Positions 9,408 through 60,400 of a stretch of 64,000 nucleotides of DNA are shown here, in pieces. The notes below the pieces were generated by a model. It saw only the letters and a program-made list of their open reading frames with translations, searched no databases and was not told the origin of the DNA. How positions within the stretch are numbered: position 1 is the stretch's first letter; the number at the start of each line of letters is the position of its first letter. The stretch lies in assembly GCA_946965045.2 (NCBI GenBank), contig OX337230.1, forward strand, positions 930,001 to 994,000, given 5' to 3'. This stretch comes from Epithemia pelagica. Taxonomy: Eukaryota; Protista; Bacillariophyta. The position numbers were made by a program, and so were the translations under genes.

Positions 9408-9916
9408 CAACCACGGAATCGTCGAGAGAACGCAACAACAACAGTATGGCGACGGCAGTTGAGCACAGTCACCAATCTGTGATGGAAACACCGCCAGGTT
9501 CTTGTATTACCTATCGGAGATTGATTTGGACCATTTCATGAACATGCCACACCGCCCGTTCGTGGACCCAGACGACGATTTCAATGATTAACACTGAATT
9601 CATTGCAAGATGTATGGATGAATGACTCATCATAGTTGACATACTACTGTAGAATGGGGAACGCTATCAGCAAATAGTGCTACAATAATAGGAGTAATTC
9701 ATAGTTCAATGGAAATGTCCTCCTCAAAGTCTTGCTCGAGGGACAATTGCGAAGGTTTTATGGTGCACCATGCAACTGAAACGTTCAGGGATGTACAGAA
9801 TGACTCGTCAAAGAGAAGATAAAGATTCAATGTGCTCATTACTGTTACAGGCGGCAAGAAAGGGGAGCCAGCATGCCTTCTCTTATTTATACACATGCTG
9901 TTGTCAACATGATGCT

Positions 9917-12457
9917 CTAATGCTCCATTTGGTGAAGCAGCAGTTTGGCTCGATGTTGCATGTTTGTTTGGAGCCGCCATGCCTCCACATGTTCATTCTT
10001 GACCCACACTCCAATGGCGCTTCCATCACCTTGCGTTGTGATAGGATGCGAAAGCCTACTGTGGTGCAACAGGGGATCATGACACAAAACCATTTGCGTC
10101 TTCCATACCATGCTGTTTTCTCGAGCAAGGCTTGCTAGTTCGCGAAATGCATCTGGAGTTGCTCGGACTGCTTGCTCTTCGATAGTATTCCATACACCAG
10201 AGCATTGTTCTGTACGAGACCCTTCGGAATCTAAATTGCTGTAAAGCAAAAGCAGAGGTTGCAATTTGGCTTGCAGTGATTCCAGGTGTGATTCCCACAT
10301 GGATTTGGATTTCTTCTCGTCTCCTTGTGAAAGCTGGTCGTGACTGGCATTGTTGTAGTGAACCTTGGTTAGAATGGGACCCAAGGCGACAAAATCCGAA
10401 ATTAGATCGTCCTTTTCAACACCCTGAGTATTCGAGATCCATTCGGTAAAACAAACCGCGGTTCCGTACTTGAGATACAACCGCAAACGAAGCTAAAAGA
10501 GAGATGTGGCCAAGGCGGGAGCAACCTTTTTCAGCCACTGCGAATTGCGTTCCAGATGAATACCAGAGCGAATCCGTTCCAATGAATGGGCACAAAAGAA
10601 ATACAGCACGTACGGAGTGGTGTGCGTAAAGGAGGCCAAGACTCGTTTCGACTTGGATTTGACCAAAACAAAGAAACGGGGAAACGATGCGTGGGACTGC
10701 ATCTCCGCTTCATTGGTTCGACTGTCTGGGAAAACATCGTGAATGTCCAAGACGATGCGCGGTTTCGACTGAATCGGAGATCGTTTGGGAGATAGTGTTC
10801 CCTCTTCTTGCTTTTGTCAACAACGCTCCCACTGAATCAGCAAGTGAGCAACGGCCTTTTTCCGTGCCATAAGATAAAAGACATATGTGTCTAGTAGCCT
10901 CTTGATTCGGTCTCGCTCAGACGATTGTTGTTGACATTTTTGTTTGAAGGCATTAGTTCGATCATGACCCTGGCTCTTTACTTTCATATCCTCAAAGACA
11001 AGTTGCATCAGAGTCGGATTGTAAGATTCTTCCAAACCATGAATTTGTTGTTTCATGCCTGGTAATGTCAGCTGTACAAGTGTGGTAGATTCCATAAATG
11101 GAAGCAAAGGAGTCGTCGTTTTGTCTCCATCATGGATGTTGTCGGATTGTCCTCCCAGAACCAGTATCTGCCAGTTGCGTGAGCGGAGAGATTGACAAGT
11201 TCTTGTCGCAAACGTGACCACAGAGTAGAATTGTCGCGAGTGCACAAGCTTTGGAAGGCTGCAAGACGACCTGCACTGAACATCGTAAACTCGGAGGAAT
11301 GCAGACTGTGGTTGCCCGTCTTGGTTCGAACGTGGTGAACTGACAATGAGCAATGGGTTATTTCCGATTTTCACCAGAGCTGGACCGTGCCATTCAGTCT
11401 CTGTATCGTGTTGGAATTCGCGAAACTCATTGTCGCATGTGTGCCAGGAAGATGCAAAGGAGACAGTACCGTTCCTGTCGTGGTCGATCTCGAACGCTAG
11501 CTTTTCGACTTGAATGCCAGACGAGGTTGCATCCGAAGTCGTTCTACCCATGGCCCATACCTCGTTCTCGACTGTTGTCACTCCCAATGGAACCCGTATA
11601 TAATTGAGAGAGACTCCAACCATGACGGCCAAGCAAGTCTGCTCCAATCCATGATACAATGTTGTCGATTGTGTGTCCACAATCTCAGCCGCACCGGACC
11701 CACCTCGCGCCAGGACGACAATGTACCGATCCTGTACGGTCACCGCAACGCATCCATGTCCACAACAGGACAAGCGACAGGGGAGGGTCGTCCATTGGTC
11801 AAGTGATTTGGTGTAGCGGTTAAAATAGTGTGGCTGTGCCAAGACCGAAATGGGAATGCGTTCCATCGTATCCAATCCCACTCCACCAATGGCATAGACA
11901 TGACCGTTGCAAGCCACAGCAGCCAAATCCAGGCGAGAGTCGTTCAACGCTGGGCCTTCACGCCAGGAAATTGGATCTTGTTGTCGTAAGGTCCGCGACG
12001 GTGGACCATCCATGGGATTGGCAGAAGGAGCAGGAGGCAGCCAACCAAGAGAAGCCGACGTTGGAACCTCTCCGACCAACACAGACGAGACATTGGGGGT
12101 GTGTAGTCCACCCAACACAAGGATTAGATCTCTTGGTTTCACAATGTTCGTGTCTTCGTGAGCTTGACTGTTCTCGGTGGAAGTCGTCACGACAATCGAA
12201 GCGTGATGAGACCGTTCATCACATTCGCTCTCATTCGATAACGGGGATACATTCCATGTCGTGTGCGGTGACCACGTCCACCCAGATTTCAAATGACTGT
12301 TTATTTCGTGACTGTGTGAAATTGTTTGTGCTTCACATGGTTCGTCGTCTGGAACAAGACATGAATCTTCCTCCCGATCGATGTGCATGCGCATATGTTG
12401 TGGTTGGTCCGGTTGAATGATTGAATTTTGGTTGTTTCGAGATTGATCTTCCATCAC
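9917..12457 (-). pseudogene. Kelch-repeat protein paralog 2; in-frame stops at 10817-10819 (TGA) and 10493-10495 (TAG)
   Basis: ORFs 10817-12457, 10493-10750 and 9917-10486 are all in one frame. Kelch motifs: WREGPALNDSRLDLAAVACNGHVYAIGG and WTTLPCRLS...VTVQDRYIVVL. The C-terminal WLKKVAPALATSLF*LRL matches paralogs 1 and 3. Confidence 0.7.
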
Positions 12458-13009
12458 TCGAATAGTCTAGGACACGCGTTGAGTCCTCATGAATGGTTCA
12501 TTTCAATGGCAACGAGAGAAGAATTAATAAAGGATTACAGATAGATACCCAGAGAGAGTTGCCTCGTTGGTCGTTGCCTCTTGTTTGTTTTGTCTGAAAC
12601 TGGAAACACAATCCGTGACAAATTTCAGGTTTTGATGTGTGCTCGGCCTGCGCGATTCGTTAAGCCTCGGTTCTTTTTAGGAGTGGGACAAAATTCAAGA
12701 GTGACAGGAAGAATTGCTTTTAACGGTCGACACGTGTGTGACATGGGACGCTTGGCGTCCTCTTGCTATTGTATACTTGCTACTACGATAGCTAGTAGCG
12801 GCACTATCATGCCATTGCTAATGCGTGCTGACCGATATCGAGGAAATATAGGCTATACAATTCTCGCTTGGTCGACAAATCTAGAAAGCTCATTCCATTG
12901 GAGCAACAACCTTATCTCAGCTATCATACGTTACTTTTTACTTATCAACACGTTTCCACTTGATTTCTGGTCCGGATCTTTGAAACACTCTCTAAATGTA
13001 GTGAGTTTC

Positions 13010-17876: not shown

Positions 17877-18800
17877 GATCATTGTCTGGAGGTTCATAAT
17901 TTTGCTAGAGATACGATCGCTACGAAATGAAGTCTTTGCCTATCCAAAAAGAGCTTTCCTATGTGGACGGTATGACAGAATTGGAAAAGCAGCTTTTTTC
18001 TCAAGAACAAAGACAAACGGTATGACAATCGGAAAAGCAGCTTTTTTCTCACGAACAAAGACAATACTTGGTTGCTTTTCTTGACTGGTGGTCTTGGATG
18101 AACTGAGATGACACGGCGTCATGTGGTCTCTCTACCCGGCATGTGTGGTGGCCAGACGTGACAGGACACGATAGGCCTCTCGACCACCCTCCAAACTCAT
18201 GGTCACATGTTCCAGTGTATCCCAATTCACCAACCATTGCTGCGTTTCGTGGTATTTCCGACGCATTTTTCGGAACTCTCGATGCAAGGCCGCCACGTGC
18301 ATGCGACAATGCGATTTGACCTGCAGGAGTCCCTTGGTTTCGGTGGGTCTCTTGTTGTTGATGCGCCGAACTGTGCACTGCAATGCACCTCGAAACGTTA
18401 CGGCAGGCAGCATCGTGGATTTGGGAGCCTCGTTGGGAACAATCTCAACGCTGGTTGGCAGTGTTGGCGACTGCGGCTCTCAAAAATTGTCCGTCTTGGG
18501 AGCCACAAACAGGAGCCCATCCTGGTCGCCCTTTGTGCGATGGGAGTCATGGTCGCTATTCTTGTCAGCATTATTCTTGTTGTAGTCTTGAGGGAAGCTG
18601 CGCCAATGGATGAACACACGAGGGAATATGGCGGGAGCATGGCGGGGTTGATGGAGGAGCCGGCGCAACCATTTGGGCACTTTGCGCTTGGTCTTCCATG
18701 GCCGAGGGTATTGCATCGGCATCATCATGGGCGGCCCCTGCCATGCGAGTTTTCTACCGTGGCCCCAGAACGCCACCTTTGTCGTTTGGAATCAATTTGA
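17877..18800 (-). pseudogene. Truncated, decayed copy of the 3' end of Kelch paralog 3
   Basis: 17877-18370 aligns by eye with 22202-22825 at high identity (KRPTETK.LLQVKSHCRMHVAALHRE...WDTLEHVTMSLEG). It has TAG at 18132-18134 where paralog 3 has TGG, a ~170-nt gap and a ~48-nt tandem duplication at ~17967-18063. The 5' boundary is approximate. Confidence 0.75.
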
Positions 18801-22451: not shown

Positions 22452-25018
22452 TTACCGGTTTGGAAAGGTTGCATTCCCTCCCACAGTTGCTTGTTTCCGG
22501 AGCCATTTTGTTTTGTTGCTTTTCTCGACCCAAGTAGTGGCCTTGGATGACCTGGAATGACACGGCGTCATTTGGTCTCTCCAACCGGCGTGTATGTTGG
22601 CCAGACGTGACAGGGCACGATAGGCCTCTCGAACACCCTCCAAACTCATGGTCACATGTTCCAGTGTGTCCCAATCCACCAACCGTTGTTGCCTTTCGTG
22701 GCAGTCCCGAAGCATTGTTTGGATCTCTCGATGCAAGGCCGCCACGTGCATGCGACAATGCGATTTGACCTGCAGGAGTTCCTTGGTTTCGGTGGGTCTC
22801 TTGTTCTTCTTGTGGTTGATGCGGTCGACTCTTGTCGGAGAAGAACTCAAGAAAATGTGTTCGTCAATCAACGTCTGTGTATGTTTCCCCGTGTACCGAT
22901 AGAGTTGCAGCGAGGACGTGGATCCAACTTGTCGGGATCGGAGACGAATGAACAAGAGAGACGAAACCAAGGCGGGTGCCAAGGTTTGAATCACCAAGGC
23001 GGGTGCCAAGGTTTGAATCCACGAGGACCAATCGCTGCGTTTCGTCTCTTCCAGGACAATGGAAGGTGCGACGGGAGACAGATCGTAGGGGCACAAAAAG
23101 TGAAGCTCCCAGGTGGTTTCTCGAGGTGTCGTCGCCAAGAATGCCGAGAACAGAAATTGGGAAACGGAGGAGGAGGGGGCGTTGGGTCGTGTTCGTGTCA
23201 CCACAAACAATCGTGGAAAACTCCAATCCAGTTCCGGTCGGTACTCCACAGCAAGACGATGCATCGGTACGTTTCTTGGTGGTGACGGTGGTCGTGATGA
23301 TGGAATGCTGGTGACTGGTTGGCTGTCAGTGGATTTGTCAGGTGCCGCAATTGGGGAGGAGGATTGTTCCTGCGGGTGGTTGCTCCGAATGGTTGGATTT
23401 GAGCGGCGGACCAAAACGTCAGTGGTGGTAAAGAGCGCATAGACAAGGTTGTAACAACGCGATTGTCTCTGTACGGTATACTTGGAGGTCTTTTGTTGCT
23501 TGGTAAAGATGGACGTCTCACCACAACCACCACTCGTGGGGAAAAAGTATCCTTCACCTTGGAGTTCCGCCAGGGTACATTCCAAGCTATACCGTTGATG
23601 TTGCTGTCGGACCGTGCCCAGTCGAGTCACGAGTTCGGAAAGACTCAAGGAGGCAATGGGCAAGGCTTCGACATGATTCAAGAGGGTCGCATAGTCGGCC
23701 GTTGTGGGTGCCATTCCTCCCACCACCAGGATGCGACGGTAAAAAGGGAGCGGTACCATGGAAAACAAGCAGCGTGGCATCCTTAAGGTCCAGGTCGGAT
23801 CCAAGCTGTACACCACGTTACGATCCAAATCGACAATTTCAATAGTCTGGACATAGTTGGCAGCATCGCTGTCGTCACCCAGTGCGGGTCCATAGTGTCG
23901 TCCTCCCACCACCACCAAGCACGATCCAACTTGGGCCAAATCATGTCCCCAACGACCCTGAGACAATTCCAGATTCGCATGCAGCGTCCACGACGGCGAC
24001 AGTTGCAATCCGGATGATTGGTTGTTGTTGCTGTCGTTGTCACAAATTCCTCCTTGGTCCAGAACTCAAGTGATTCAATCTTTCGGGAGCCATGGGTGGA
24101 ATACCCTCCCACGACCCAAATGCAATTGTCATAGACACTGGCCGCAAAGACGCATCGTGGAAGGTTCATGGAGGGGCCTCGAGTGACAGTTTCGGTCACC
24201 ACGTCGACAAGCTCCACGGTTGGAATGGCCAAGTCGTCCCTTCGGAGACCACCCAATACCACAATATAGCGGTCGTAGAGGGTCACGGCTTGAACTACTT
24301 TTTTGCAACTGGACAAACGACACGACAAGGTCGTCCAACCAGCTCTCGTTGTAGTTGTTTCATGTTGTGGTGTTGGTGTTCCTTTCGAGCCGTTCTTGTT
24401 CGTTGGGAGCAACTCAGCAACCGAGATTCGTTCGATAGTATCCCAGTAGTTGAGCGTTCCATCATTGTCACCACCTCCTCCAAGTGCATAGACCGCGTCT
24501 CGACAGACGACCGCCGCAACGCCGTCACGAGGGACCAAGAGAGGAGGTCCTTGCTGCCATTTCCAGGTCCGCAACTCTAGAATCCACACTTGATGACTGG
24601 CTTGACCCCGTGCCTGATTCCGGATGTCGTGTGGTGTTGCGACGGTCCCTCCCACTACCACCACAAAACTGTCGTGGGGCAAACAACAACAAGACGACTC
24701 GTTCGAGGCATCCTTTTCTGTCTCATTATGGGTCGTTGCTGTTGTGGTTCTTATTGTTCTTGTTCGATCAATTACTACCGAAGCATGAGCCCGTCGTCCA
24801 TTGCCACTCAAGGGGGGAGGAAAACTAGAATAGGAGGACACGGAAGATTGTCGGTAGGGTCCCACCTCCAACCCAGACCAAATGGTTTGACACAAGTGGT
24901 CCTTTGGCTGTTGTTGCTGTGTTGGACCATGAGTATACTTTGATGGCTCGTCATTGTGGGCGCCGCCGTTCCGTCTTGTTGCGGTGGACGACAGAGATGC
25001 CATGGTCTGACGTGCCAA
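22452..25018 (-). pseudogene. Kelch-repeat protein paralog 3; frameshift near 24010
   Basis: ORF 23783-25018 carries Kelch repeats (WQQGPPLLVPRDGVAAVVCRDAVYALGG; GPSMNLPRCVFAASVYDNCIWVVGG). These continue in the other frame in ORF 22452-24008 (GRWGHDLAQVGSCLVVVGG). The C-terminal domain has WIQTLAPALV duplicated by an exact 27-nt repeat at 22966-23019. Confidence 0.75.
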
Positions 25019-28000
25019 CCATACGACTCGGCACTTTATGCGTACGGAAATTCTACAATCAAAGATCGCACCAGTCGCGCAGTGGATCCACGACTCAAAA
25101 CAGCAGGACTCAGGACTGTCTGTCGCATCGCATGTCCGTCGTCCGAAATTGAAGTGACAGTCTCCACGTGTAGACCTTCTCCTCGGATTGCTATCCTACC
25201 TATGTCGGCCGTGAAAGGTCCATCGATCTCCATCGAGTCCCTCACTCCTAGGTAACCTGTTACAAGTCCTTCCGTCTTCAGCACCCCTATCATGGCCAAT
25301 GGCCAGTGTCATGGATCCTTTCTTGTTTCGGAGCATCGTACCTGCTCTCACAATCAATAATAAACGATTTCCAACGACACGTTGGAGTGAGACGGACGAG
25401 GAGTGTTACCTACCGACTTAGATGGAGACTTCTGTTTCCTCAGACGGGATACGTACCAGGAGGGTTGACCGAACGCAGGCGTACTTGTCCTTCACTCTTT
25501 TGCATTGACTGGGCTTTCGTAGAGCAACGACCATGAATGCAACTCTCTATCTGCTCACAGAATTCCCATCGATAGTGCATCCTCTCTAGAGGGGTAGTTT
25601 GAATGACGATATGTTTCGTATTCTCTCTTGGATTGCCAGGTCCGTGCGTTTGACCTATACACCAAACAAGAAAAAGAAGACGGCTTCTTCTCGACTGTTT
25701 CGGTTTAATCAAGTGTTCGTCCACTGTTCCTGTTTAATCAAGTGTTCGTCCATGATCTTGGTGGTAACACTTTGACACAGTAGTTGGTGAAACTCACCAA
25801 CATTTCGTATTCTCATCAAGCTTGGAGGAGGCTTTATTCTTTACTCTCGATTCAACTGTACTATGCTTGGTGGAGCCTTTCTTTTAGTACAGAAATACAC
25901 GCAAGTCGAAAGTGTTTGGGCCATGGACCATGGACTTCACGGTTTGACATGATGTAGTACTCTCTTCCCGCCAGCGGCATTTGTGGGACAGTCCTGCCCT
26001 TCGTGCCAGCCCCTTGGTAACCGGAGAATGTAGTCTATTGCTGTGGTCCTTGCCGCGATGATCCATGTGGTGCAGTAGGTACCAATGGTTGTAGTCTACT
26101 AAATACAAGAGGCCTTCCGTATCCATCCCCCCTTGAATGGGACCGCCATTCATGTATGGCGAGTCCAATCACCAGCCATCAACAACATGAGTCATCGCTT
26201 GCAGCGAGTTAAAACGGCGTTCGGGATGAGAAAGTCTACGACTAGCCAGAGAAAGTATCATGCACAACCCACAGTGGCACGTTCTTCGATACCAGGATAG
26301 GATGATGATTCATGATTGATCCTTCTAGCTGTGGACATGGCCCTGTTCTTGTCCTTGAAACCGGTTTTGAAAATACTGGGATTGATCCTTGTCTTTCCTT
26401 TCTTTCTGCATCGCTGTCCCCATCTGTCTCATCCTTCATAAAATATTGTGAAGAGCTTCGCTTGGTTTCTCGGTTTCATGGATTTGTCATGCACTTTTCC
26501 ACAATGTCGCGGTGCGATTGAAAACTGCAAGAAACCTTGGATCAGAGGTTCGCGACACTGGTCGTCGTACAATGTACATTACAATAAGAAGTATAAGTAC
26601 AACATAATTCAGCAGCGACTGCATCTGAACTTTCGCTTCCGAGCGCGAGGCGGCATGATCCTATTCATCCACACAAACTATTCAACGTGAAAGTAACGTG
26701 CTTTCCTATTTCTGATTTCTGTATCTACCAAAGTCACAGAGAACAAAAAGAAGTAGCAAAAGAGTTGAAGCTAGAAGCTTATGAGTTATCTACAAACTGC
26801 GTGTGAAACCAGACTTGTTGCTCACGTTGGTAGATGAATCTTATGTAAATCATAAACGCAAAGAAATGGTTCAAGTTTTGTTGTTGTCGTAGAGCGTCTA
26901 GAGACATACAATGTTGATATGAAAGAGCTCCAGAGCATGATGATCCGATTTGTTCGCAAGCTCATTCGAGTCTTCGGTGCATGGAGGGGACAGAAAACCC
27001 AAAGCCACAAATCTGATACACACCTCAAGTAGTATTCATTACAATTACACAACAGTGACAGTGGATCCCTCTTGCTACTAAAGTTGGAAAGACAAAGCGC
27101 TTCGTGGTGTAATTCAAGAGGGCCATTAGGCCCAGGCAGACATGCTGAACTGCGGAGGACGGATACGTGGAGGAGGTCGCTCCATAGTTGCGATCTGGTC
27201 CATGAACAATACAAATGTACTATATCTTTCACGAATAGTACAACACATACAGATCTCACTGAGTCTTCGCGACCTCCGTGTCATTTCATGCAGTACAGAC
27301 ATTGAGCATCGGAACCTAATTGCATATCCAATGCGCACAGTCGGAGATAACGACGACAAACTGATTCTGCAGAGTCGAGAGAAAAAGGAAAACTCAGCTT
27401 GGCGATTTCCAAGCACAAACCATCTTTGTACAGACGCAGAAGTCTGATGGCACCAGTATCAATGTATGAAGAGCGTCGGAGTGAGTTGAAACGGTTATGG
27501 ATGCTCAATGACTCGAGACTTACCTTCTTTCTGATCTTTGGCCATGGCGGGATGGCAGTGAGTTGAGAATCGGTTATGAATATGATCGGTCGCGAATATT
27601 GTCCTTTCATCTTGAGAGGTCTTTGTTTTTATCCTGGGTTTTCACGGGTCGAAATTCCCGAAATTGGGTGCGCCTTGGCCTTGGCCCTTGACCCTTGACA
27701 GTTGTTGGTTTCAAAGGGTTTTCGTCGCGTTGTTTGGTTCATGCAATTTTCTCGACCTCCAAAACGGCGTGAGCGATTGAAAATTCCGATAGAGGGTTCT
27801 TATCCCCGCGACTGTCAAATAATAAATAATAATAGTAGTGCTACTCGTACTCGTACCTTTGTTGTATTCTTCGCCGCCCTACCATTACTCGTATTTTAAG
27901 TGTTACCAATGAAGTCTGAGTTAATGTACTTGAAGAAAAAAGTGGCAGAAAAGTGATGGGCAATTCTTGAACTATGGTAGTGGTAGGGAACATCATGCAT

Positions 28001-28724
28001 GAAGGTCACCTTTCCCCGACGGTCACTTAGTTTCGAATCACTCATACCTATAGGTACTCATTCTTCAGATAACACAGCGTCACGCCGAGGAGGATACAAA
28101 TACGAGTAGGAGTAATGAAAGATGGCAAGGACTTCGGAACATATTATTCGCTACCAATTCCGATTCATCAGTTCTGATCTCGCGAAACACTTTGGGTAGT
28201 GGTCTGACAATGAATTAACAATATTAATTAAATAACATTTTCTGATTACGAGGGCCTTTGGTTCCTTCCCAAGCTCCCACCTCCTTGCCCCGTTAGGCGA
28301 GGATATTCTCCTTTGGCAATTTTGTCAACGATTTGACCAAGAGAGTAAACTTAGAATGTAGACGAGGTTGAATTAATATAAGATTCCATCAATCCACAGA
28401 GATACTCTGCTTCATGTCGTGGGGGGAAGTGGGGTCACCCTCCTTCCACACGGAGGTCGCAGTCTTTATGTCCAAAGAAAGCGGAGACCGCCTTCAAATG
28501 ATCCGATTCCAAGAACGTATACGGGATTCCCGTTGTTCCTCCCTTGATTCCCCCCTGGCCTGATCAGGTAGCACCATACAATCAGCCCATGGAGGGAAGG
28601 AGGCGGTCAACTCACATAGAACTAGAAACCAGAGTCACTGAAGCAGGAGTTTGAGCCTTGCCCTGTCGGCATCAAAGTATCCTGTTGGTCTCTGTACCCC
28701 CCACTAAGAATCTCGCTCGTTCTT

Positions 28725-30323
28725 TCACATCTTCTGAGTGTAGCGTAGGAAAGGGGCGAGCAGCAACGTTGGGTCCTTGTATGTCTGGTCCATCGTTCCT
28801 CCCTCTTTCCTGGTGCCTGACGATTCTTTGACCCGCCAACGATTCACTATTTCTGTGTCCGGAATAGATACATTCATTTCCTTGGCTCGGGTATTGGAAC
28901 CTCTTCGGAAGGACCTGAAGTTCGCGTACTTGTTGACAATGTCTTCCTCGTCCCCTATTGCATGCGATGGAAAGAGGAGGGGGCTTTGGTTCCACACTCT
29001 CACAAGATGATGATGGAAGATTTCATCTAGTTCTCGTGACGAAATCTTGTTTCCATCTCGATGAACCATTAATGGACCTTTGTGTTTCCCGCTGTCTTGA
29101 GCTAAGGCAACAGCTCGTCGTATCCATTTTCGAACTGGAAGCCCGCTTCCCGTAACATCGCAGCAAGGTAGCAAGTGGGATCGTTCAGCATAATCCCCTT
29201 TGAACTGGCCCCACAAAGCTATCACCACACAGCTTGCCCGATGCCTCAGTGAGTCGCCGTGTTTCAGCAGGCCCCCGAGGTCCAATAGAAATCCTTCAGG
29301 TCCCCGTAAGGATAGGGCGAAAGCCACCACGAAGAAAGTGGCTGCCATGACTTGGGTATATTGCCACTCCAAAGACTGAGTTTCCACAATGGATTCTTCA
29401 ATTGATCGTAGGACGGCTATCAATAGATCGGGAGTGATTGCCTGGTCAGGCCTCCAATCCTGGCCCATTCGTCTTTTCAGGCCTTCTGCAAACCTCGAAA
29501 ACCATAGAGATCCGCTCTCGTCACATCCAATCCTGTTGGCGGTTTTCCCATTATTGTCGACAAGAACCAGTTATGCAGATCCTGCCAATGTAGAGGGAGT
29601 TGTCCTTACAAAATTGGAGTAAGCAGCCCGCATGCGTCTGACAGAGTCAAATTGTTTGTGGCTCTTGTGATATTTGCCTGGATCCCGAGAATCATCCAGC
29701 ATCAAAAAGGCGATGTGATATCCGCAGTGGTCATGGGCGGGAAAAGGACTTTGTCGGACGAATGGTCCATCCGGAATTCCCACCTTGGCAGACCTTTCCA
29801 TCATCCTTTTTACCAAGTTGTTGTTTTGTTTTACCGTACTAGGAGCTCTGCTCCAGAAGGCGTCCAAGTTCATTCTGCGTATACAGAGCATCAAATAGTT
29901 GTCTTTCACATTCGCGTCGTCAGGATTCTGTCCTCGAAGCTTCCGAAAAATGCAATAGTCACACTCAAATGGAGTAATTAGGTGGTCCCCTTTTCTTGCT
30001 CGCATGAAATCGTCGGCTCTGTCTCTTGACTGTTGTTTCCAGCTCTCGGCAACTAAACGGTCCTCATCATCCTGTCCATACCTCGAATTCTGACTGGCGA
30101 CATAAAATCCATCATCTTCTTTCAAAAAATAACACTCTGGACACCATGCTTTCTGACATGGTGGCCAGCTTCCAACACTGAATACAAAGTTTCCGCAAAA
30201 GATCCTGTCCACCCACTTCGTCGTTTTTCCACACTGGTCGCAATTTCCTTTCCATTGCGAACATTTTAGGGGTTCCCCTGAGTTGCCAGGGTTTCGATCT
30301 GAGAAACGGAAAAGCAAAACCAA
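28725..30323 (-). pseudogene. Tyrosine recombinase ORF of the retrotransposon; in-frame TAA at 29571-29573
   Basis: ORFs 29571-30323 and 28725-29468 are in frame. Catalytic-like motifs: LRGPEG (first Arg), RSFRRG (HxxR-like) and C-terminal MDQTY (Tyr). The Cys-rich N-terminus overlaps the RNase H/MT ORF at 30112-30323, as is typical of DIRS elements. Confidence 0.8.
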
Positions 30324-31330
30324 CGATTAGAGGTTCATAGTTCTCACGTGGCCAAAACGACGTTCCCGCGGGTATTTCAATCACGAGGTCACAGGCCTTG
30401 TGAATCAATCGGTACCATCGCGGCGTCATCAAACGATGACACAATAATATGTGAGTTGACTTTTGTCGCTTGTATCTAACTTTCCGAAGCTCCTCTAAGG
30501 CGGCATCCGCTGCGCCTGCTGGAGGGCTCCAAACAAAGTGTCCTGGCCTCAAGATCGGCAGGGACAGTTTGTTGTATTCTGAGGGCATAGACCAGCCCCG
30601 AATATCATGTGCCGTGGTGTACCAGTCCATGGGGGTGAGCCATTCCGTCTTCGGCCCCAGCCAGGACTTAACCCATCCTATAAGGGAATCCGACATTTGA
30701 ATGGGAGTTTTGTACAAGGGGATAAATGACAACATGGGTTGGCCTGCCATGACTCCCTCATTTAGCTGCCCTCTTGAGATGCCGTCCACGCCCCAAGCGA
30801 TCATCCTTTTTCCGGATACGTGGGAGATGTGGAGTCTTAAAGCATAAGACATCTCCAGCCTTCTTAACCGAATCACCAGTTCTAGGAGTTTCGGGCTTGA
30901 CGATGACCCTTTATAGAAGCAACGTTCTACCGTCGAGTTGTCTGTAAAGAAGAAAACTTCGGAAGACTTGAGAGTCCCTTTCCTGGCCTCTTCTTCCAAT
31001 GCTTCCACACAATTGGTGAATTCTCGCCAATTCGAGGATTCACCAACCACAACGTCTGCATCCCAGACACCAATCCTGTACGACAGGCCCTTTTGAGGCA
31101 ACTGGATCGCTGACCCAAACCCCGCTCCGGATGCATCTCCCGAGCCATATAAAGCGATGAATATCGTTTCGCATCGCACCTTGATGTTGGGAGGGGAATC
31201 AGAGTCAAACAAAGCCATTAAGGCTGCTACATCGGACTTGAGTCTCGGCACACCTCTTATTTGAGCAGGAGGTTTTTGATCCGCACGAGCAAGAGTCTTC
31301 TTTCCCTTGTCCTCACATCGTCGTCCTCTT
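30112..31330 (-). pseudogene. RNase H plus DIRS-type N6-adenine-methyltransferase-like domain
   Basis: RNase H acidic residues in GDASGAGFG, SNWRE, FTDNS and GVDGISRG. Downstream FVWSPPAGAADAALEELRK...THILLC.RLMTPRW resembles the xPP motif region of the DIRS MT domain. Confidence 0.75.
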
Positions 31331-32650
31331 CAAAGCCGCATAGAGTGTCGTATTCTCGAGCATCAAGCTTGTGTTGTAGCTCCGTCACCCATTCCCTAGC
31401 GGATAGCTTCCAACCTTCTTTATTCCGTCCTCCTCTCCAAAGATTCATGGACAGATAGAATCCTTTGAGGAACGGCATCATACAAGAGTAGGTCATGGCC
31501 AAGTGCACCAAGAAACCAACGTCCCGCTGCATTTGCTTGTGAGAAAAGGACGGTGACTCCGAGTGAAGGTATGCATCTTGGTAGGCTTTGATGATGGATT
31601 TTCCCTTGTCCCACTTGGCTTGAGTTACCGTCTTCGACACCGCTGTTTCCGAAATGTGTTGGACGGAACCAGCCCATGCTCCTGGCGTCTTAGAGGGCAG
31701 GCGTCGTTTTCTAGGGGCATCTTGAAATCCGAAATATTGTTATCTAGAAGCCAGACGACGTCCCACTTGCCACGTATTCTCTGCCGTAGAGCCAACAATC
31801 CGTATATCGTCCATGTACGTTACCGAGTCGCCTGCTATTGCGTTGGTTCGGGTGTTCCACTTCATCACCCAAGGCCTAACGGGCGAATAGTCAGGTGATC
31901 CTGGAATATTGAATCGGACTTCGTCAAATCCGCACGGGCTCAATAGATCATGAGGAGAACCACGAGCGACCTCTTCCGCCAAGTAAAATTGTTCGACCGC
32001 GTGAAATGGGCTAGGTAGCATACCCATGAACAAGCGATTCCATCGCACCTTATCCGAAGAACAAGAAGCTAACACGTCGATGGGGAAGAGGTCTTGGATT
32101 GGGCGTAGATCCACTCCAGCGTAGGGACGGAGGTTGTGGTCCATGGGGAAGTCGAGAAACATTTCCCCCAGGTCCATATCTCCACAGTACGAAGCCGTAG
32201 TGAGCAAACGAAGCGAAGTTTCTGCAGTTGGGAGCCAGAAGCTAGGGGCCCAAAGGGAGTCGTTTAGCCCGGAACTGGTCCCATTATAGACCATTCGTAT
32301 GTCCGTGTCCCCTTTGGGGACGTCAAAATAGTCAGTGAGACTAAGAATGGAGGCATCAGTGTCGAAGTATCCCCGCGAAAGAACTTTGGCCAGTTTGGCC
32401 GCTACCCGTGGGCGCGAGTCCGCCGCGGGTACTCGTTGCGGGCGATTGTTGTGAGGCAATGGAGCGGTCACATGAATGGGTGTGCCGTACCAGGCCTCCC
32501 GTTGTTGCTGGAGGCCATTCCACCGCCAAAAGATAAGGGATGAGCCGTGATCCCAGTCCCACCAGGAGGCCGCCAGAAGCTGAGAAAGCACGGAGCGGCC
32601 CGCAACACAAACCTCCGAGAGAGAAAAAGAATCTCCCCCCCCCCCCCCCC
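31330..32650 (-). pseudogene. Reverse transcriptase domain; in-frame TAA at 31740-31742
   Basis: YFDVPKG..IRMVYNGT, DMDLGEMFLDFP, FMGMLPSP and YMDD (31806-31817). The frame continues past the stop as QYFGFQDAPRKRR...GAWAG into ORF 31257-31640. Confidence 0.85.
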
Positions 32651-33084
32651 CCCTCTGTGCTGCCGCGCCTGAGGAAGGAGCGACAGCCAATTAGACCCAA
32701 ACCGACTACAAAGATAACCAATGAAGCTCCGGTACAAAGAACGACGCCACCAGCGCAACCCTAGGGCTCGAAATCCAGCAAGGGCTCCATCGGTCATCCA
32801 TGGAAAAAGCCCCCGAATCCGACCGTCCCACAGGGAATAGGGAGCTTCTGCGTCGTCGGCCTTGGTTGCCTTGGCAGCAATGAGAGAGTCATCTAACCAG
32901 GCCGAGTGCGGAAGGAAAGCCTGCAACGCCGCAAACCAAGTGCCCAATTTGCCGTCCCGGGTGGCCGCAGCGACTGGTGGAGACGGTCGCGGTCGTTTAG
33001 GCGACGGCGGAGAGTGTGGAGGAGGGCCCTCTCGTTTTTCACCCGCACGATCAGAATGGTGCACATACACCGGCTCCAGATGAG

Positions 33085-33830
33085 GGAGAGCGCTGCTCAA
33101 CACCGCCGACGGAATCTTGATGGGGACAAAACGTGCTCCCAACACGTGTTCACGCCACCACAAGTGGGCGGGCGACCCCGGCGTCAACCCCAACGGGAGA
33201 TCAAACGCCGAACCCAATTTGCCATCAGTGAGACATCGATAGCCCCAACCAGTCTTGAAAAAGGTGGTAGGGACCAGCACAGGACGTTGCAGATCGCGAA
33301 CGTACAACGAAGCATGTTGAGGGTAACAGGGCTTGGATGGTCCACTAGCCGAACAAGCACGAGGTTTCACTGAATGGTCAAGTACCGCAGCCAAAGTCCG
33401 GCGAACTTCGACAGTGAAATGCAAGGGTGGAAGTTTGCAGCGCCCGACATTGACACGCGCCGTGGTGACACCTCCACAGCTGCTGTGACCCACAGTAAGC
33501 CATTGCACGTCGTGGAGCATGGGACGTGTCTAGCCAGCCGGCAAGAGAAGCAGCACCGGCCAATCGGCAGGAATGGACGGCAGCATAGATCCCATGTAGC
33601 TCGGGTCACCTTCCAAAAGGACAAGGGAAATCAGACCACGGCCCAAGATAAAGCTGACGCTCGGCACCAAATGAAGCCTGGGTTCCAGACGTCGAGCAAC
33701 CGAATGCCAGAAAGGATTGCTCCGACACGCCTCGTAGTCGCTAGCCAACATGTAAATCCCACTCCAGTCCCCGCTGTTAAGGGCCAGTCCCCAATACCAA
33801 GTGCTTTGTCCCAGTAGTAGACAAGACACA
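33085..33830 (-). other. Degenerate C5 cytosine DNA methyltransferase-like domain in the pre-RT part of pol; in-frame TAG at 33530-33532
   Basis: ORFs 33530-33874 and 32468-33520 are one frame. By-eye matches in canonical order: I (LLGQSTWYWGLALNSG), IV (LVLLEGDPSY), VI position (WPVLLL), VIII (WLTVGHSSCGGVTTARVNVG), IX (RCLTDGKLGSAFDLP) and X (FVPIKIPSAVLSSAL). Confidence 0.5.
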
Positions 33831-34030
33831 TCAGCACGAAACGTTTTAGTGCCGCGGTCAACCATGCGGCGCACGCAACGGCGGACAGAGACTTCACAAG
33901 GAGGGTGAGGGCGACATCGTGGTTTCGATCGAACCTCATCAGAACTAAGAGTAGAAACCTCGCTATGAGCATCTAAATCAGAGTTGACAGAATCAGAAAT
34001 TGTCGTGTCTAATTTAGATGCTCCAGGATG

Positions 34031-36483
34031 TCAATCGGTGTTGTTGTTGTTGTTTCCACGACGCTTCGCCTTCTTTCGTTCATTCACGTCTTTCTTCACC
34101 GAATCGACCGTGCTATTGGCAGTATCAGCTGCCTTCTTTGCAGCTTGGCAATCCTTGGCCGTGGACTGCATTGAATGCTTCAAGGAATCGACCTTATCCT
34201 CCAACGTTTTCAAAGACTCGAAACCCGAGTTAGTCGAGAGAAACCTGATGTACTCGCTTGAGACGGATGGGTGGTTCTTGAACCGAGCCGTCGAATATTC
34301 CGCCATCACGTCATGGGTTTGTAGAACTCAATAAAGTATCCAAGCACATTGCGCACCTTGGTCGGACGTAGAGATCGAAGAATACACTTGAGCCCTGACT
34401 TTGTAGAGGTCGGCCAGAAAACGACGGATCACCTGGGTTACCAAACTGAATGCTTTGCGCGTTGTGAACTTTGATTTCATGGTCAGCTCATTCATAGTTT
34501 CGTCAAAATAATTGATGAGCTCGCGACAACACCCCAAGGAGACGGACAACATAGACATAGCAAGGGACCGTGCTTCAGGTTCTCCAGCCATGGTGATGGC
34601 AATTTGCTCGCCGAACATGGATTGCATGTTCCCCATCTTGTTGATAATTCTATCCCTGACTCCAGTTTCAGGGGTTTCCCATTCCTCATGGTCTTTCATG
34701 GCCGTAAGGAAAGAGGGGTCACGACCTGTCCCAGGGAGATCTTTATATAGGATCTGTGGGAACTCCAATTTCATTGCGTATAGTGCACGTGCTTTGTTAG
34801 TCGTAGCAATTTGCATTTTGTGACGCTTTTCCATGGACGTCAACATCGACAGCATGTCCCCGTGTTCCTGGGCGGCACACCATTCCAGAACCAAAGGCAA
34901 ATCAAATAACAGACCGTAGGCACGAGAGCCAAATTTCATAGATACCCAAGCCTTGCAATCATCGACCGTGGCCAAGCCAAGGTTTCCAAACTTGATCACC
35001 GTGGTGTCCATCTTGGATTTCAAACGCTGAAGTTCAACTTGACTGATCTGCAGAAGCCCCTTGAGTGCTTGAATTTCTGATTCCATTCTTGCCGTTTTAG
35101 CCAACAGATCCATCTGTTGTTGATGCGACAAACTGGAGGTCTGACTCGGCCCAGATAGTCCGAAGGTACTGTTGGTGCTTGGGTTTTGCCTGATGGAGGA
35201 GACCGATTGCTCCACAAAGGAGACACGAGAAATGAGACCTTGAAGTCCCTTTACAAGGTTTGAACGTAAAGAATCAATCGCAGTCTTCGAATCCGTGGCC
35301 AACGTTTGCACCTTTGCAGATGATTCCAGATGGAGAGCCTTGAAATGCGAAGTCATGTTGTTGATTTGCATCTCCAAATCATTTACCTTCGACTTGGTGA
35401 AAGATTCTAAGACCTGATAGGAACGCGCCCCAGAATCTTTAGCATTCGGCGGATCATTTCCCGTGATTGCGTTCGTGATGGCTTGCAGTACTCCCCAGAT
35501 GGTAGGTGCTTGAAAATCGTCTCCAATGTGTTCCCTCGGACCGATTTCCATATGAAGTTTTTCAATCTGCAATCCCAGGGCTTCCACGTTGTCAACTACT
35601 TCTTGTTTGGCTTTAGACTGATCGGATGAGATGGCACGAATCAGTTCTCCAGCTTCCATCATAGAGTCTTCTATTTCCCGTAGGACCATGGGAACCATAC
35701 TTGGATCTTCACAGATTTTGACCGTGACTTCTTGCAAATTTCCCCCCAAGATTTTTCTATGGGGTGGAAAGTTTTCGACCACAAAAGAAGGGTTGGTAGC
35801 CGTGAACCGTTTCGAAACCGTGTAAGGCGTAGTGGTTCCAGTAATCTCGGTTACTCGGGCTTCCGATTCTTCAAAGTTTGTGGATGCTCCCCCACCTTCC
35901 TTCTTGATGACAGCAAGGCGTTTAAGAGCTAGGAATTTCTGCATCCAGTCGTCAACCGTGTGTTTTTCTTGAAGTAGCTTACTCTTGAGGTCTGTAGGAA
36001 CAGAGTCAAGCGGAATGACGGGGGAGCAAAAGGCGGATGCGGAGTTCTTCATAATGAAGACTCCACCTGTCTGGGACAGTTCGAAGGGGGGCAAACCTGT
36101 TCCATGGTCCCCGGCTTTGGAGCACTAGGGGTCAATGCAAAAGGTGTTGCCCCCCCCCGCTTGATTCCCAAACAAAGGAACTTTTCCTGGGCAATCTCCT
36201 CGGACAAAACGGTGATTCCAAACTTACTTGTAGAAGCAAAGTCACCAAAACCCGAAAGATCCGTGCTTGTTTTCTTTGGAGTAGATGTCGATGTCGAAAG
36301 AGCCAAAGTGTCAGACGTGGTAGGCATGAATGAGATCTGACCAGTGTCCCCCCCTGGAGCCCCGGTGGAAAGAACCGGGGCCCCGGCCATTGCCGGAGTA
36401 GCGATGGACGCAGAAGCAACGAGAGAGGAGAGGAGAGAGTCCTCGTCCTCCGGAGGAGGAGGCTTGGAAGGAACAAACGACAT
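34031..36483 (-). pseudogene. Gag-like ORF1 of the retrotransposon
   Basis: The reading frame can be rebuilt across the G9 run (36150-36158) and the stops at 36125 and 34328. It has an N-terminal C-x-G...FC-x4-C-x4-H motif, coiled-coil segments and a C-terminal H.VM...F.NHPSVSSEYIRFL. It lies upstream of RT on the same strand. Confidence 0.65.
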
Positions 36484-37250
36484 GGTGAAAGAAGAAGAAC
36501 GAAAAGGAGAAGGAAAAGCCCAAAATACTCTCTTGAGATGGTGGAACGGTGCCAAAGGAGATCAGACCTTTGCCAAACGAACGCTTTAGTCTCAGAAGAG
36601 TGAGCTTGTTGCATCGTGGAATGAGGTGCAGCTTTGGCGGCGTGGATGGTGGAGATGGTACCTCTAGCTAGCTAGCGCAAATATATAGTATCGAATAAGA
36701 ATGAATGTGATCAAGTCTTGAATTATCCAGATTAGTGGTTTTGTCATGATCGCAGGGTATCTATGGGTGGTAGTGCATCAATGATCATGATAGCTTTTGC
36801 GTTCGTCCAGAAGCATCTTTGTTCTCGGCATCATTGCGCTAAAGGATCATCGAGGCCAAGCTCTCAAGGGACCATTACAAGCTACCTTACGAGCTACGAA
36901 TCATCGGGGTCGGAGTTCGGAGTCGGACCACTGCCAGCTGTCGGTTGCATCTTGCATCTTCTCTTCGCAAAGTGTGGGCGCTGGATGTAGTACAGTTTAC
37001 ACGACAGTCAACAATCAAGAAAACAGGACCATCACGATGCACAAGAATTCATACAGCTCCTTGAGTCTTGACTCTTGGCAGTTCGCAATTCGACTATTCA
37101 TTATTCAGTATTCGGAATGGTACTTTATAGTGATACAGTGACTATGAGGCTTATCAAAAACTCCTTGTCCCGATTTTACAACTTCTTCATGATGTTGCGG
37201 TGACTGTTTGCGTCAATTTCGTTGTTTTGTAGTTGGGCGTGGTCCTGCCA

Positions 37251-37365
37251 CCACCTTTTGTCTACAGTCCCGCCACTGACCGTGACCTGACTGAAATATA
37301 CTCACAGTTGCCACTTTTTGTCTACAGTCCCGCCACTGACCGTGACCTGACTGAAGTATGTTCCC
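37251..37365. repeat. Tandem 60-nt duplication with a third partial copy at 37593-37613
   Basis: The 40-nt core ttttgtctacagtcccgccactgaccgtgacctgactgaa is identical at 37256 and 37316. cactgaccatgacctgactga occurs at 37593. Confidence 0.9.
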
Positions 37366-37705
37366 ACAAATCAGACCGGCCTAGTGATTCCCCTTCTAGG
37401 CAAGAGATTTTTCTCTGTGCTGTTGGCGTTTGGCGTGCCAGAGAAGTGTGAGAGAGATGACAATTGACAATGGAGTTTGTTTGTAGCTTGATAGCAAACA
37501 GGATGGAGCATGAGAAATGAGAATGCAGAGGCTTCGTCGACAGCGTTGATGAGACTTTTTTTACAACTGCCCTCAACCCTCAAGCTCTCGCGCACTGACC
37601 ATGACCTGACTGAGCTACCTACCCTCCCACTTCTCTACTAGAGGAGTAGGAGTAGCTTTCCTCCTCGACAATGGAGTCTGTTTGAAGAGGTTTTAGAGCA
37701 AAAGG

Positions 37706-57498: not shown

Positions 57499-60400
57499 TT
57501 AGCACTCCATCACCACAGATCCGTCATAGTTGGTGGGGCTCCTTTCTTCCAATGCGATTTTTTCCACCATTTCGGCCACCACCTGTTGCCGACGCAACTC
57601 CCACTCCTTTCGATTGGCAATCGCATCGTTCAAAAACTCGTCACTCGACTTGCCAAACACACCACAATCCTTCAGTTTACGAGTCAGAGGAATAATGTCA
57701 AAGAAACCCATCTCGCCCTTGTACCAATTGTCTGCCGGATATTCTCGGCCCGGCCAGCTTTGAAGGCAGCATAACACTCACGGAAAAAGGACTCGTTCCA
57801 TTTACGGTACACATGCCAATGTTGCATGGTGTGCGATACATCACTGGCTTGGATAAGATGCTCAATGACAATGGTAGCCTTACGATTGACAGAGTTTCGA
57901 TCTTCTTCAGGGGCTTGCTCGGGGCTGGCTTCAGTTTCCTCCTGTTTGGCAAAAGCTTTGTCCCAACGCTGGTTACGAAGATTCTTGAGTTCCTTATCAA
58001 CAATATCAGTGGCCATGACACCATTCACCAGCAATTGACGGAAATGGGCCAGTTCGCGATTGTCGACACATATGGTTTTTCGCAACGTATCATACTTGGG
58101 ATCCAGGAACATTTCCCACGCGAGGGCGAGGGAGTTTTGCTCCAAAACGCTTCTACCTCCATACACGGCTACCAATGGATCTTCTTCCTGCATGAGCTGA
58201 GCATTAGACACACCTACGTGGTCGACATCATGGATCAAAGCAGTCACGGCACAGGCAAGTTGGGTCAAAGGATCAGATGTGATACCATATGTGTGGTCGT
58301 GCAGACTTTTGACCTTTTGTTCACCATCCCCGAGGTCAATATCTGAAGGAGCAACGACACGTGATAATATTTTGATCACTGACATTGTCACATGCTATGG
58401 AAAGAAAGCAGAGTAAAGGGAGAATGAGTGAGAGATATCTCTACACCTTGTCTAGTCACGAGACACAAAGGTAAAGTCATTCAGATCTTACCGAAGCATG
58501 TTCAAAGTTGTGAAATGCATTTGCACGATACATTTGGGCAATACCTGTGACCCACATCCGGAGTTCTTTCACTGCCTCCCCTGAAACATGCACATCGTCC
58601 GTGTTCTTATTGGCTCCTGAGATCGACGTTTGGTTGAACTCCGGCAAGGTGATGATATCCTTCACTTCCTCCAAGGGATGATTCATTGTCGCAATCATAG
58701 CTTCGGATGTTGTGTTTCCATGAGCAAACTGCCCAGAAGAAGACGCGGCGGTGGAAGCAACGAGTTCACGTCGAGCAACCACTTGCTTGATCAATCGCAG
58801 CAGTGTCTTAACATTCCAGTCAATCAAACGATCTTGACGATCAGCGGCAACCAGGTTGTAGTCCACCGCTTCGTCATCGTCTCCATTAGACGTCGCCATG
58901 CCGGTATCTGACTCATCGTCTTCCTCCATCGACATTCCGGCTGCATCGGTATCTTTAAGCACCCAGTATGTCTGCATATCTGGTTTGCCTTTGGCTTGGA
59001 TGATATCTTGCCTTTTCACTAGCCAGTGTGATTTTCCGGCTTTAACTACCAAATCTGCAGTTTCCTGAGAAATATGAATTCGTCCGGATTTTCCGCCACT
59101 TTCAATTCGCGCTGTTGTGTTCATTGTGTCCCCAAACAACTGGAACCGTGCACGATCTCCCCGCAAGACACCAGCTGTTACTGGCCCACTACGGATACCA
59201 ACCCGCAAAGACAAGTCTCCAGTATCTGGTCCCAACGTCACTTCCAGTTCGCGAGTTAGCGTATACATGCGATGCATAATGGCCCGCGCAAATCGAATCA
59301 TCGCGACTGCATGGTCGTCTCGTGGGTCGGGGAGACCGCATACAGCGACATAGCAATCACCGACGGTTTCAACCTTGAAGACTTGTCGTTTGCGAGCGAT
59401 ACGGTCAAAGGCAGCATATACTGTTTCCAGCAACGTAAAGACCTGGGTAGGCTCCCGAACAGAGGACCACGCAGTAAAGCCGACAATATCCGCAAACAAA
59501 ACCGTTGTCTCCAGAAACAAGTCTGCCATGGGTTTGGAGCCTGGTTTCGCAAAGTCACCAGGGTTGTTCCTCCTCTTGAGCAAGGTACTCTTAAGATTCT
59601 TTTCATCCTCGAGTTGGGCGTTGGGACCAATGAATTGATCACGGATATGCCCGGGGAAAAACGAGGACACAATGGCATTCGATCGGGCTGCATTGGTCAC
59701 CAATTTTCGGTTTCTCACTTGAACAAACATATCGTAAATGAAAAATACTGATGCCATGAGGACAAAGGAAATCGCTACAACAATTGCGAAGATCAAGGGC
59801 GTATTGCTCTTGTAGTCATCCTCAAAACGAGAAGATGGGTAGACCGTCTGTCAAGGAAAAGTGGGAATCGAAGACAATGAAATAAGAAACAGTCTCACCG
59901 ATGTCGTTTCGACACAAGAACTAAACCACAAAGAACAGGAAAAGTATGAACTTACCATGTTGTACATGCAGTGACCAGGAGTAACTGCCCAGAGAGGATC
60001 GTCAGAGGAGGACAAAGGAACATGAACCGCCATACTGTCGTATTTTGAATCATGCTGGTCCCCATTTCCCAAGAAGAAAGCATCTTTTCCTTCAATTTCA
60101 TACGTAAAGGTATCGTTGCAGTTGTTACGAATAATAACGCGGATACCCTTGACACCTTCGGGCAAGACATTACGCAAAGAGGCATCCCAAGCTACCGGTC
60201 CGCTGATGACACCCACAACAGGTGAGTCCAAATCATGGGGATCTTCTCGAATCAAGAGCGAATTAAAGGAATGAGGATGATCCAAATTCTGGTTCGGCAA
60301 CTGACTGTGGATCAGAGCATGATCACGAACCGAGGATGAGGCAAAGGGGCGGACTTTGGTGGTCAACACTTGTCCCTTGAGAATACGACCAGCATCATAG

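Follow-up and report, generated by a model that had tools for sequence, protein, structure and literature searches.

A predicted cytosine-methyltransferase-like domain without catalytic motifs at the N-terminus of Pol in DIRS-like diatom retrotransposons

Introduction

To our knowledge, the DNMTs of retrotransposons have so far been described as intact enzymes, and they are thought to methylate the cDNA of their own element. De Mendoza et al. reported the captures SymbioDIRS-Dnmt3, SymbioLINE-Dnmt and KnitGypsy-Dnmt3 in 2018, and the main text of that study describes de novo CG methylation as shown for retrotransposon DNMTs (PMC5890265). Moreover, the main text of a preprint presents EpiLTRs, retrotransposons with a DNMT and a DAM domain (bioRxiv 10.64898/2026.05.21.726589). 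The word 'diatom' is absent from the main text of the former, and both 'diatom' and 'inactive' are absent from that of the latter. A Pfam survey of diatom DNMTs mentions no TE-borne one in the sections examined, and it does not use the term 'DIRS' (PMC9998398).

Here we analysed a window, by which we mean a whole stretch of 64,000 nucleotides from the diatom Epithemia pelagica (contig OX337230.1, positions 930,001 to 994,000), and describe a decayed DIRS-like element whose Pol begins with a domain resembling C5-cytosine methyltransferases (C5-MTases) in its predicted fold. The element is similar to SymbioDIRS-Dnmt3 in that a C5-MTase-like domain of DNMT3-like size lies in the Pol of a YR element and is inherited with the reverse transcriptase (RT). 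According to the main text on SymbioDIRS-Dnmt3, however, its key residues are conserved and Pfam detects the domain, whereas in the family of the Epithemia element Pfam fails, and the catalytic motifs and the catalytic loop are absent from the best 150 of 339 clusters; the repeats are arranged A-coding-B-A-B in a dinoflagellate host there, and as short imperfect inverted arms in a diatom here (PMC5890265). The capture of a cytosine methyltransferase by a retrotransposon is shared with KnitGypsy-Dnmt3, SymbioLINE-Dnmt and EpiLTRs (PMC5890265; 10.64898/2026.05.21.726589), but these belong to other TE classes and hosts, and the main texts describe their domains as recognisable DNMTs. DIRS1-like elements have the gag-like ORF, the RT-RH-(MT) Pol, the YR and the inverted ends in common with our element. 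In the sections that give their layout no N-terminal C5-MTase-fold domain is described and their length is under 6 kb, whereas here such a domain is present in 8.3 kb, no internal complementary region (ICR) was found and the YR follows Pol (PMC3266345, PMC6681497).

The capture of DNMTs by retrotransposons is thus known. What is likely new is a fold kept as a non-catalytic part, which we did not find in the literature searched. Likewise, the full texts searched, chiefly of open-access papers, contained no account of diatom YR elements that carry a C5-MTase or pseudo-MTase domain.

Results

Organisation of the element

The following features were assigned in the window.

28285..36585, minus strand: decayed DIRS-like (YR) retrotransposon of about 8.3 kb, from the ORF map and the imperfect inverted arms; we infer its ends
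36526..36579, minus strand: short, imperfect inverted terminal repeat, 5' arm, from local alignment with 28291-28347
34031..36483, minus strand: gag-like ORF1, labelled by position; Pfam gave weak coiled-coil matches only
33963..34026, minus strand: stable RNA hairpin (RNA fold) just past the gag stop (UGA then C), likely a read-through signal
33071..33853, minus strand: predicted C5-cytosine-methyltransferase-fold pseudo-enzyme domain at the N-terminus of Pol, from an AlphaFold model, Foldseek, VIA-align and family counts
33596..33625, minus strand: LVLLEGDPSY at the place of motif IV, without the catalytic Cys, helix directly after, catalytic loop missing
33530..33532, minus strand: premature TAG, private to the Epithemia pelagica window copy; Trp in relatives
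33194..33505, minus strand: motif VIII, TRD-like region and motif IX; conservation is highest here (HxxxGGxT; R160, H164, R/K171, W211, R214, E220, P228)
32654..33000, minus strand: conserved linker from the pseudo-MTase domain to RT with a K[AS]DDA motif, in 57/58 long matches
31299..32633, minus strand: RT, with YMDD at 31817, a stop at 31740-31742 and frameshifts at both ends
30085..31275, minus strand: RNase H and C-terminal region where the Dam-like MT of DIRS would be; 76% identity to the relative P0007, WSPP at 30531
28725..30326, minus strand: tyrosine recombinase ORF with one in-frame stop at 29571-29573
28291..28347, plus strand: imperfect inverted terminal repeat, 3' arm, from local alignment with 36526-36579

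The inverted arms of about 55 bp gave a local alignment score of 41, compared with 33 or less in 331 random windows. Contigs of other copies stop at 36585 and 28524, and therefore the element's 3' end is uncertain by about 240 bp. Comparison of the end regions and blastn of 27.5-38 kb revealed no ICR in the element, and the same blastn search no split direct repeats (A1...B1 A2 B2) of the PAT-like, Ngaro-like or SymbioDIRS-Dnmt3 type. Between the two end regions of this one decayed copy, direct matches do not exceed 10 bases. In contigs from public runs the depth is several-fold higher at 28524-28640 and 36377-36585, where the contigs also stop, which suggests that the end sequences are common to several related copies.

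With regard to the order DIRS, an RT/RNase H ORF and a tyrosine recombinase are present and there is no DDE integrase. Pfam RVT_1 matched the RT of the window copy at an E-value of only 0.063, and it was also weak in four of five intact relatives (E 0.0045-0.086); the RT is 73% identical to that of the intact P0007. RNase H was assigned from DASG, ESSNWRE, FTDNS and GVDGISR, which we take to be its motifs. For the YR ORF, the top Atlas cluster (0.99) is labelled Bacillariophyta from one member, while clusters at 0.97 and 0.95 carry PF00589 in 44% and 98% of their members, respectively. The motifs R, RxxR, W and Y presumably lie at 29312, 28919, 28844 and 28784. The YR call is based on these PF00589 clusters and motifs; the ORF gave no match in Pfam and no useful one in a PDB sequence search. 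At the place of the Dam-like MT (30300-30560, minus strand) the window has WSPP instead of NPP, and P0007 is the one of five intact relatives with WNPP. This region had no match in Pfam, PHROG or NCBIfam, and its AlphaFold model was poor (pLDDT 42.5). Pol may carry two methyltransferase-derived domains, and it may in this way combine both types as the EpiLTRs do with DNMT and DAM in the main text of that preprint (10.64898/2026.05.21.726589).

The window copy of the element is dead, its three ORFs being broken by stops and frameshifts. In the gag-like ORF1 the frame shifts near 36150 and is interrupted by a TGA at 34328-34330; the terminal TGA of this ORF lies at 34031-34033. A C19 run at 32635-32653 (a G run on the coding strand) forms the boundary between linker and RT and is the site of the frameshift into RT. 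P0002, P0004 and P0006 also end or change frame near this Gly-rich spot, which points to either a site where breakage recurs or an assembly error at the homopolymer. In two of the three public runs one contig links 32654 to 36377, perhaps a deletion derivative without gag and the pseudo-MTase domain or an artefact of the C runs. A contig in two of three runs omits 1029 bases of RT (31719-32749) and represents an internally deleted allele or copy.

Outside the element, a stretch of 60 bases is duplicated in tandem and partly present a third time (37251-37366 and 37586-37624), and the public runs show indels at 37291-37482. The window also contains several Kelch-repeat genes (7326-12466 and 22455-25195) and a duplicated stretch in which the ORFs 18162-18797 and 22611-23282 start alike. 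A guanylate/adenylate cyclase domain and a cyclic-nucleotide phosphodiesterase domain lie side by side (57687-60552, minus strand) and likely belong to one intron-split gene. A DUF6824 domain is present as well; this domain and adjoining cyclase and phosphodiesterase domains are typical of diatoms.

The domain forms the N-terminus of Pol and is inherited with RT

The preliminary description had quoted five segments resembling C5-MTase motifs, and these indeed lie in one minus-strand frame in the order given, spanning the TAG at 33530-33532 (I 33782-33826, IV 33596-33625, VIII 33440-33505, IX 33194-33241, X 33086-33127). The frame of about 450 amino acids that it had placed between gag and RT exists across the TAG; its length, however, is 520 residues from stop to stop (34030-32468). 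A separate ORF between gag and RT was rejected, as the stretch corresponds to the first ~400 residues of Pol, with RT following after the frameshift at the C19 run.

By word-seeded searches we obtained 10 proteins in two length classes of five, among them P0003, which is the window's own fragment. In five relatives (P0007-P0011, 1160-1268 aa) a single uninterrupted ORF has the domain at its N-terminus and also encodes RT, RNase H and the C-terminal region. P0007 maps on the window in three frames with one stop per segment, the last near the C-terminus, and with 57%, 73% and 76% identity. Therefore, the stretch is the first Pol domain in a dead copy.

A profile of nine close domains matched 339 clusters (50% identity, E<=0.001), of which the best 150 were examined. 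Each match was extended to the full domain length before alignment. The motif counts are based on 154 rows, namely 156 proteins minus the window fragment P0003 and the near-duplicate P0006; P0015, an N-terminal fragment of the window, was kept. Among these best 150 of 339 clusters, the same linker follows the domain in 57 of the 58 matches that reach at least 100 residues past it, and the RT core is reached by 17 of 154 rows. For 15 proteins the distances of domain and RT were correlated (rho 0.76, 0/5000 permutations) and all five starred branches of the domain tree recurred in the RT tree, which shows that domain and RT are co-inherited. In the same 15 proteins the domain evolves faster than RT, with a mean identity of 0.32 vs 0.51. 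Searches with the domain alignment gave 119 pattern matches in metagenome contigs and 6 in viral contigs, none of them a confirmed relative. A homologue search restricted to proteins of 1634-4665 residues found no relative and is not informative on active ones.

The stop codon and the serine codon of the window copy

At the position of the TAG, nine of nine close relatives covering it have Trp, and T>C at 33531 restores TGG in three of three public runs (at most two samples of one study). Therefore, the TAG belongs to the window copy alone. The TGG allele has a 1-base deletion of its own at 33280 in two of the three runs, and in each run the domain is spanned by one near-identical allele. The Ser codon AGC (33599-33601), noted previously at the position of the catalytic Cys, is present and is kept in the same three runs that read TGG. 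Its distance of one base from a Cys codon had been taken as a hint; this turned out to be a coincidence, since close relatives have Asp (8/9) or Thr (1/9). A mutated catalytic Cys was accordingly rejected: in the best 150 of 339 clusters Cys occupies the column in 1 of 122 rows and never as PC. Besides, the window copy no longer has the family-conserved residues H164, E220 and F23 (H164A, E220K, F23G).

Predicted fold of the domain

A template-free AlphaFold2 model built from an alignment of 143 family rows only had a pLDDT of 94.0 (93.4-94.0 in five models) and a pTM of 0.90. In Foldseek against the PDB, DNMT2, DNMT3A and M.HhaI were the top rows (E 1e-5 to 1e-4, TM 0.47-0.54), and against a viral model library five of the top seven rows were named cytosine MTases. 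VIA-align, which is independent of Foldseek, was run against 48,161 chains; the 19 chains with Z>=8 were all C5-MTases and the first unrelated fold followed at Z 7.3. M.HhaI (10mh) was the best chain with Z 13.5, an rmsd of 4.7 and 239 aligned residues, and DNMT3A reached Z 13.1, an rmsd of 4.1 and 230 residues in the same search. In the predicted model the match spans residues 9-269 and motifs I-X of a two-domain fold in the order I-VIII, TRD, IX, X. Since the small domain and motif X at the C-terminus are part of the match, the likeness goes beyond a Rossmann core. The proposed resemblance to C5-MTases was thus borne out by AlphaFold and Foldseek, and chance sequence likeness was rejected, given that a confident template-free family model matches C5-MTases over residues 9-269.

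On the sequence level, Pfam, PDB profiles and HHalign revealed no bridge to real DNMTs. The profile PF00145, which had been suggested as a check, matched none of 11 proteins at E<=1 and none of 94 at E<=0.1, and Pfam gave no match for either half of the window frame. PHROGs and NCBIfam contained no methyltransferase match, and profile searches of the PDB gave four chance matches with a shallow and none with a deep profile, with nothing relevant among them. HHalign against nine active C5-MTases paired only motif IX with a probability of 2%, and against Dcm alone the probability was 0.1-0.4%; 42 viral Dcm loci were left out of the comparison for being too alike. An Atlas feature search with the relative P0037 yielded a decarboxylase N-terminal cluster and unnamed clusters (0.92-0.93) and no methyltransferases. 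We nevertheless consider it almost certain that the domain is of C5-MTase ancestry.

With respect to the donor clade, M.HhaI had the higher Z (13.8-14.5, rmsd 4.3-4.8 against the model), while DNMT3A/B (Z 12.3-13.5) had the lower rmsd of 3.8-4.5 and the higher identity of 11-14%. Residues 14-269 of the model span 631-911 of DNMT3A, about 25 residues more, and the spacing from motif VIII to IX is 73 vs 77-187 residues in nine prokaryotic and phage enzymes. Because of the DNMT3A-like span and this short spacing, the comparison leans to DNMT3. The F-E/D at motif I presumably resembles the F-D-G of DNMT3.

C5-MTase-fold pseudo-enzymes are also represented by DNMT3L and DNMT3B3, two DNMT3 relatives without catalytic activity. 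DNMT3L lacks the TRD and the C-terminal motifs, which accounts for its short match to the model (only 135 residues, Z 6.6). Unlike DNMT3L, the Epithemia domain keeps the TRD and the C-terminal motifs, has lost the catalytic loop and is TE-encoded.

Loss of the catalytic motifs

The roles of the PC, ENV and RxR motifs in C5-MTases are outlined in sections of PMC4802922. In the best 150 of 339 clusters the SAM-binding FxGxG of motif I was found in none of 75 covering rows; F is kept in 42/78 and followed by E/D in 56/80, and the glycine columns hold Pro (60/80) and Trp (79/84). In these best 150 clusters PC is absent from motif IV in all 122 rows, with Cys in the column once. ENV is likewise absent from all 129 rows at motif VI, located by strand order in the model and not by residue-level superposition, and two rows have an EN out of register. 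The absence of a visible ENV from the window copy, as described before, was confirmed. At motif VIII, RxR occurs in 3/144 rows and R/K at the second position in 72/148, again among the best 150 of 339 clusters.

Moreover, about 20 residues are missing from the catalytic loop, and the model runs from the strand straight into the helix. From the motif IV Gly to the point where the next strand ends there are 20-26 residues (median 22, 120 rows of the best 150 of 339 clusters); from the corresponding Gly to the Glu of ENV there are 42-51 and 75 residues in nine active enzymes. Five relatives with an unbroken Pol of 1160-1268 aa have G-D-P-D-F/Y at motif IV. As these five unbroken proteins are without the catalytic motifs, the loss is not the decay of one copy. 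Intact copies with PC and ENV, which the preliminary description had envisaged, were not found among the best 150 of 339 clusters. Judged from these alignments, canonical 5mC catalysis by the domain of this family is very improbable.

Conservation of the remaining residues

The conserved positions cluster in motif VIII, the TRD-like region and motif IX. Among the best 150 of 339 clusters, those of HxxxGGxT are H131 (137/144), G135 (142/147) and G136 (143/147), and those of the TRD-like part R160 (141/152), H164 (112/152) and R/K171 (125/148). Motifs IX and X of C5-MTases are present in the family, with R214 (140/148), E220 (136/147) and P228 (129/142) in IX and P252 (127/131) in X, counted in the same best 150 of 339 clusters; these conserved residues may be structural. 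H131, which is 95% conserved there, has no fixed counterpart in nine active controls.

In 57 non-redundant full-length rows from the best 150 of 339 clusters, the identity was 0.215 for motifs I-III, 0.228 for IV-VI, 0.35 for VIII, 0.29 for the TRD, 0.41 for IX and 0.24 for X, a contrast that is possibly inflated for VIII-IX because an HMM search favours matches conserved in the region that drives the search. In the nine active enzymes, by comparison, the identity was lowest in the TRD (0.226) and was 0.469 in IV-VI. The net charge was +2.8 for VIII-X and -0.1 for I-VI, a small bias.

Junction of Gag and Pol

Among the known contexts of read-through is a UGA stop codon with C as the next base and a stem downstream. 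The gag-like ORF ends with UGA (34033-34031) in frame with Pol; the next base is C, and the hairpin follows. The hairpin has a folding energy of -30.1 kcal/mol (z -4.40, 0/200 shuffles) and is the most stable of 291 70-nt windows of the element with the same GC content and the 39th of all 1647. In P0002 and P0004 the conservation of the frame extends upstream of the first Met, and in many relatives the domain starts without a Met. No protein resembling the gag of the window was present among the matches. In view of the UGA-C context with its stem, the gag UGA is likely read through and Pol thereby produced as Gag-Pol, as predicted from the one copy examined.

Discussion

In our study the fold of a C5-MTase was predicted for the N-terminal Pol domain of a diatom YR family whose examined members are without the catalytic motifs. 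We propose that this domain may act as a non-catalytic nucleic-acid clamp for the RNA or cDNA of the element, a model that we regard as moderately probable. Nucleic-acid binding as the retained role seems to us somewhat likely as well. An ancestral element would have captured a DNMT of DNMT3 size, and catalysis would have been lost before the family radiated while the DNA-binding face was kept. As a part of Gag-Pol, made when the gag UGA is read through, the domain would lie between Gag and RT and could retain the nucleic-acid intermediate up to its integration by the recombinase; it may also cover CpG sites against host methylation. In its widest form the proposal describes an old and large YR family of diatoms, in which a dead captured DNMT would be a conserved DNA clamp at the Gag-Pol read-through junction and would shield the cDNA from host cytosine methylation or sense methylation at insertion. 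This wider form is tentative, and we consider it possible but rather doubtful.

DNMT3L and DNMT3B3 bind DNMT3A, and the domain could also be an anti-silencing decoy that binds the host DNMT, or a reader of methylated or unmethylated CpG that steers integration. Its fold and size are closest to DNMT3 by rmsd (3.8-4.1 Å) and identity (11-14%), diatoms have DNMT3 and DNMT5 and methylate their TEs (sections of PMC9998398), and the capture of a methyl-CpG reader by a retrotransposon has been reported (PMC6673714). The CpG o/e of the element is nominally lower, 0.83 compared with 0.93-0.94 in the flanks; such a depletion is expected of any methylated TE, however, and CpG o/e does not separate the candidate mechanisms. 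The fusion to RT in cis and the agreement with the RT tree are more in keeping with a role in the replication particle than with an arms race directed at the host, and a decoy or reader is unlikely in our opinion. In LTR elements the place between Gag and RT is taken by a protease, and a purely structural spacer or assembly module without nucleic-acid binding would suit the position of the domain at the gag-pol junction, its faster divergence compared with RT and the many Gly, Pro, Trp and Leu among its conserved residues. This explanation appears still less probable, as it does not fit the conserved R160, H164, R/K171 and H131 in or near the TRD-like part, the TRD being the DNA-recognising region of active C5-MTases (sections of PMC4802922).

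Two further explanations assume an enzyme. A remodelled site, made up of the invariant HxxxGGxT, W29 and the S-G at motif IV, might catalyse another nucleic-acid reaction, and in the best 150 of 339 clusters H131 is 95% conserved while lacking a fixed counterpart in the nine active controls. The fold has been repurposed before, as with the carboxymethyltransferase 8yf3 among the Foldseek matches. In the same best 150 of 339 clusters, however, the SAM-binding glycine motif is gone (0/75), the catalytic half is the least conserved and no invariant nucleophile was seen, so that new chemistry is very unlikely. The preliminary description had left open whether the domain was retained in a catalytically dead form or was a dead copy of a family with active members. 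The window element is indeed dead, and active DNMTs exist in the DIRS Pol of Symbiodinium according to the main text of PMC5890265. Nevertheless, the five unbroken relatives have G-D-P-D-F/Y at motif IV, and in the best 150 of 339 clusters PC (0/122) and ENV (0/129) are absent and the loop is deleted; a dead copy of an active family is hence barely credible. The retention of a catalytically dead domain across the family is supported by the absent PC and ENV together with the 339 related clusters.

If a clamp without catalysis is the right reading, several consequences follow for TE biology. The persistence of the fold without catalysis in a family of hundreds of clusters implies that a capture can pay off without methyl transfer. 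Binding would be separated from catalysis in the arms race of TEs and hosts over methylation, which is testable in a diatom with DNMT knockouts. Furthermore, surveys with profiles such as Pfam PF00145 undercount captures of this kind, and a previously unannotated Pol domain of about 260 residues gains a name. Should the domain act as a cDNA shield or methylation sensor, it would represent a TE-encoded pseudo-DNMT module for counter-silencing that is invisible to domain libraries.
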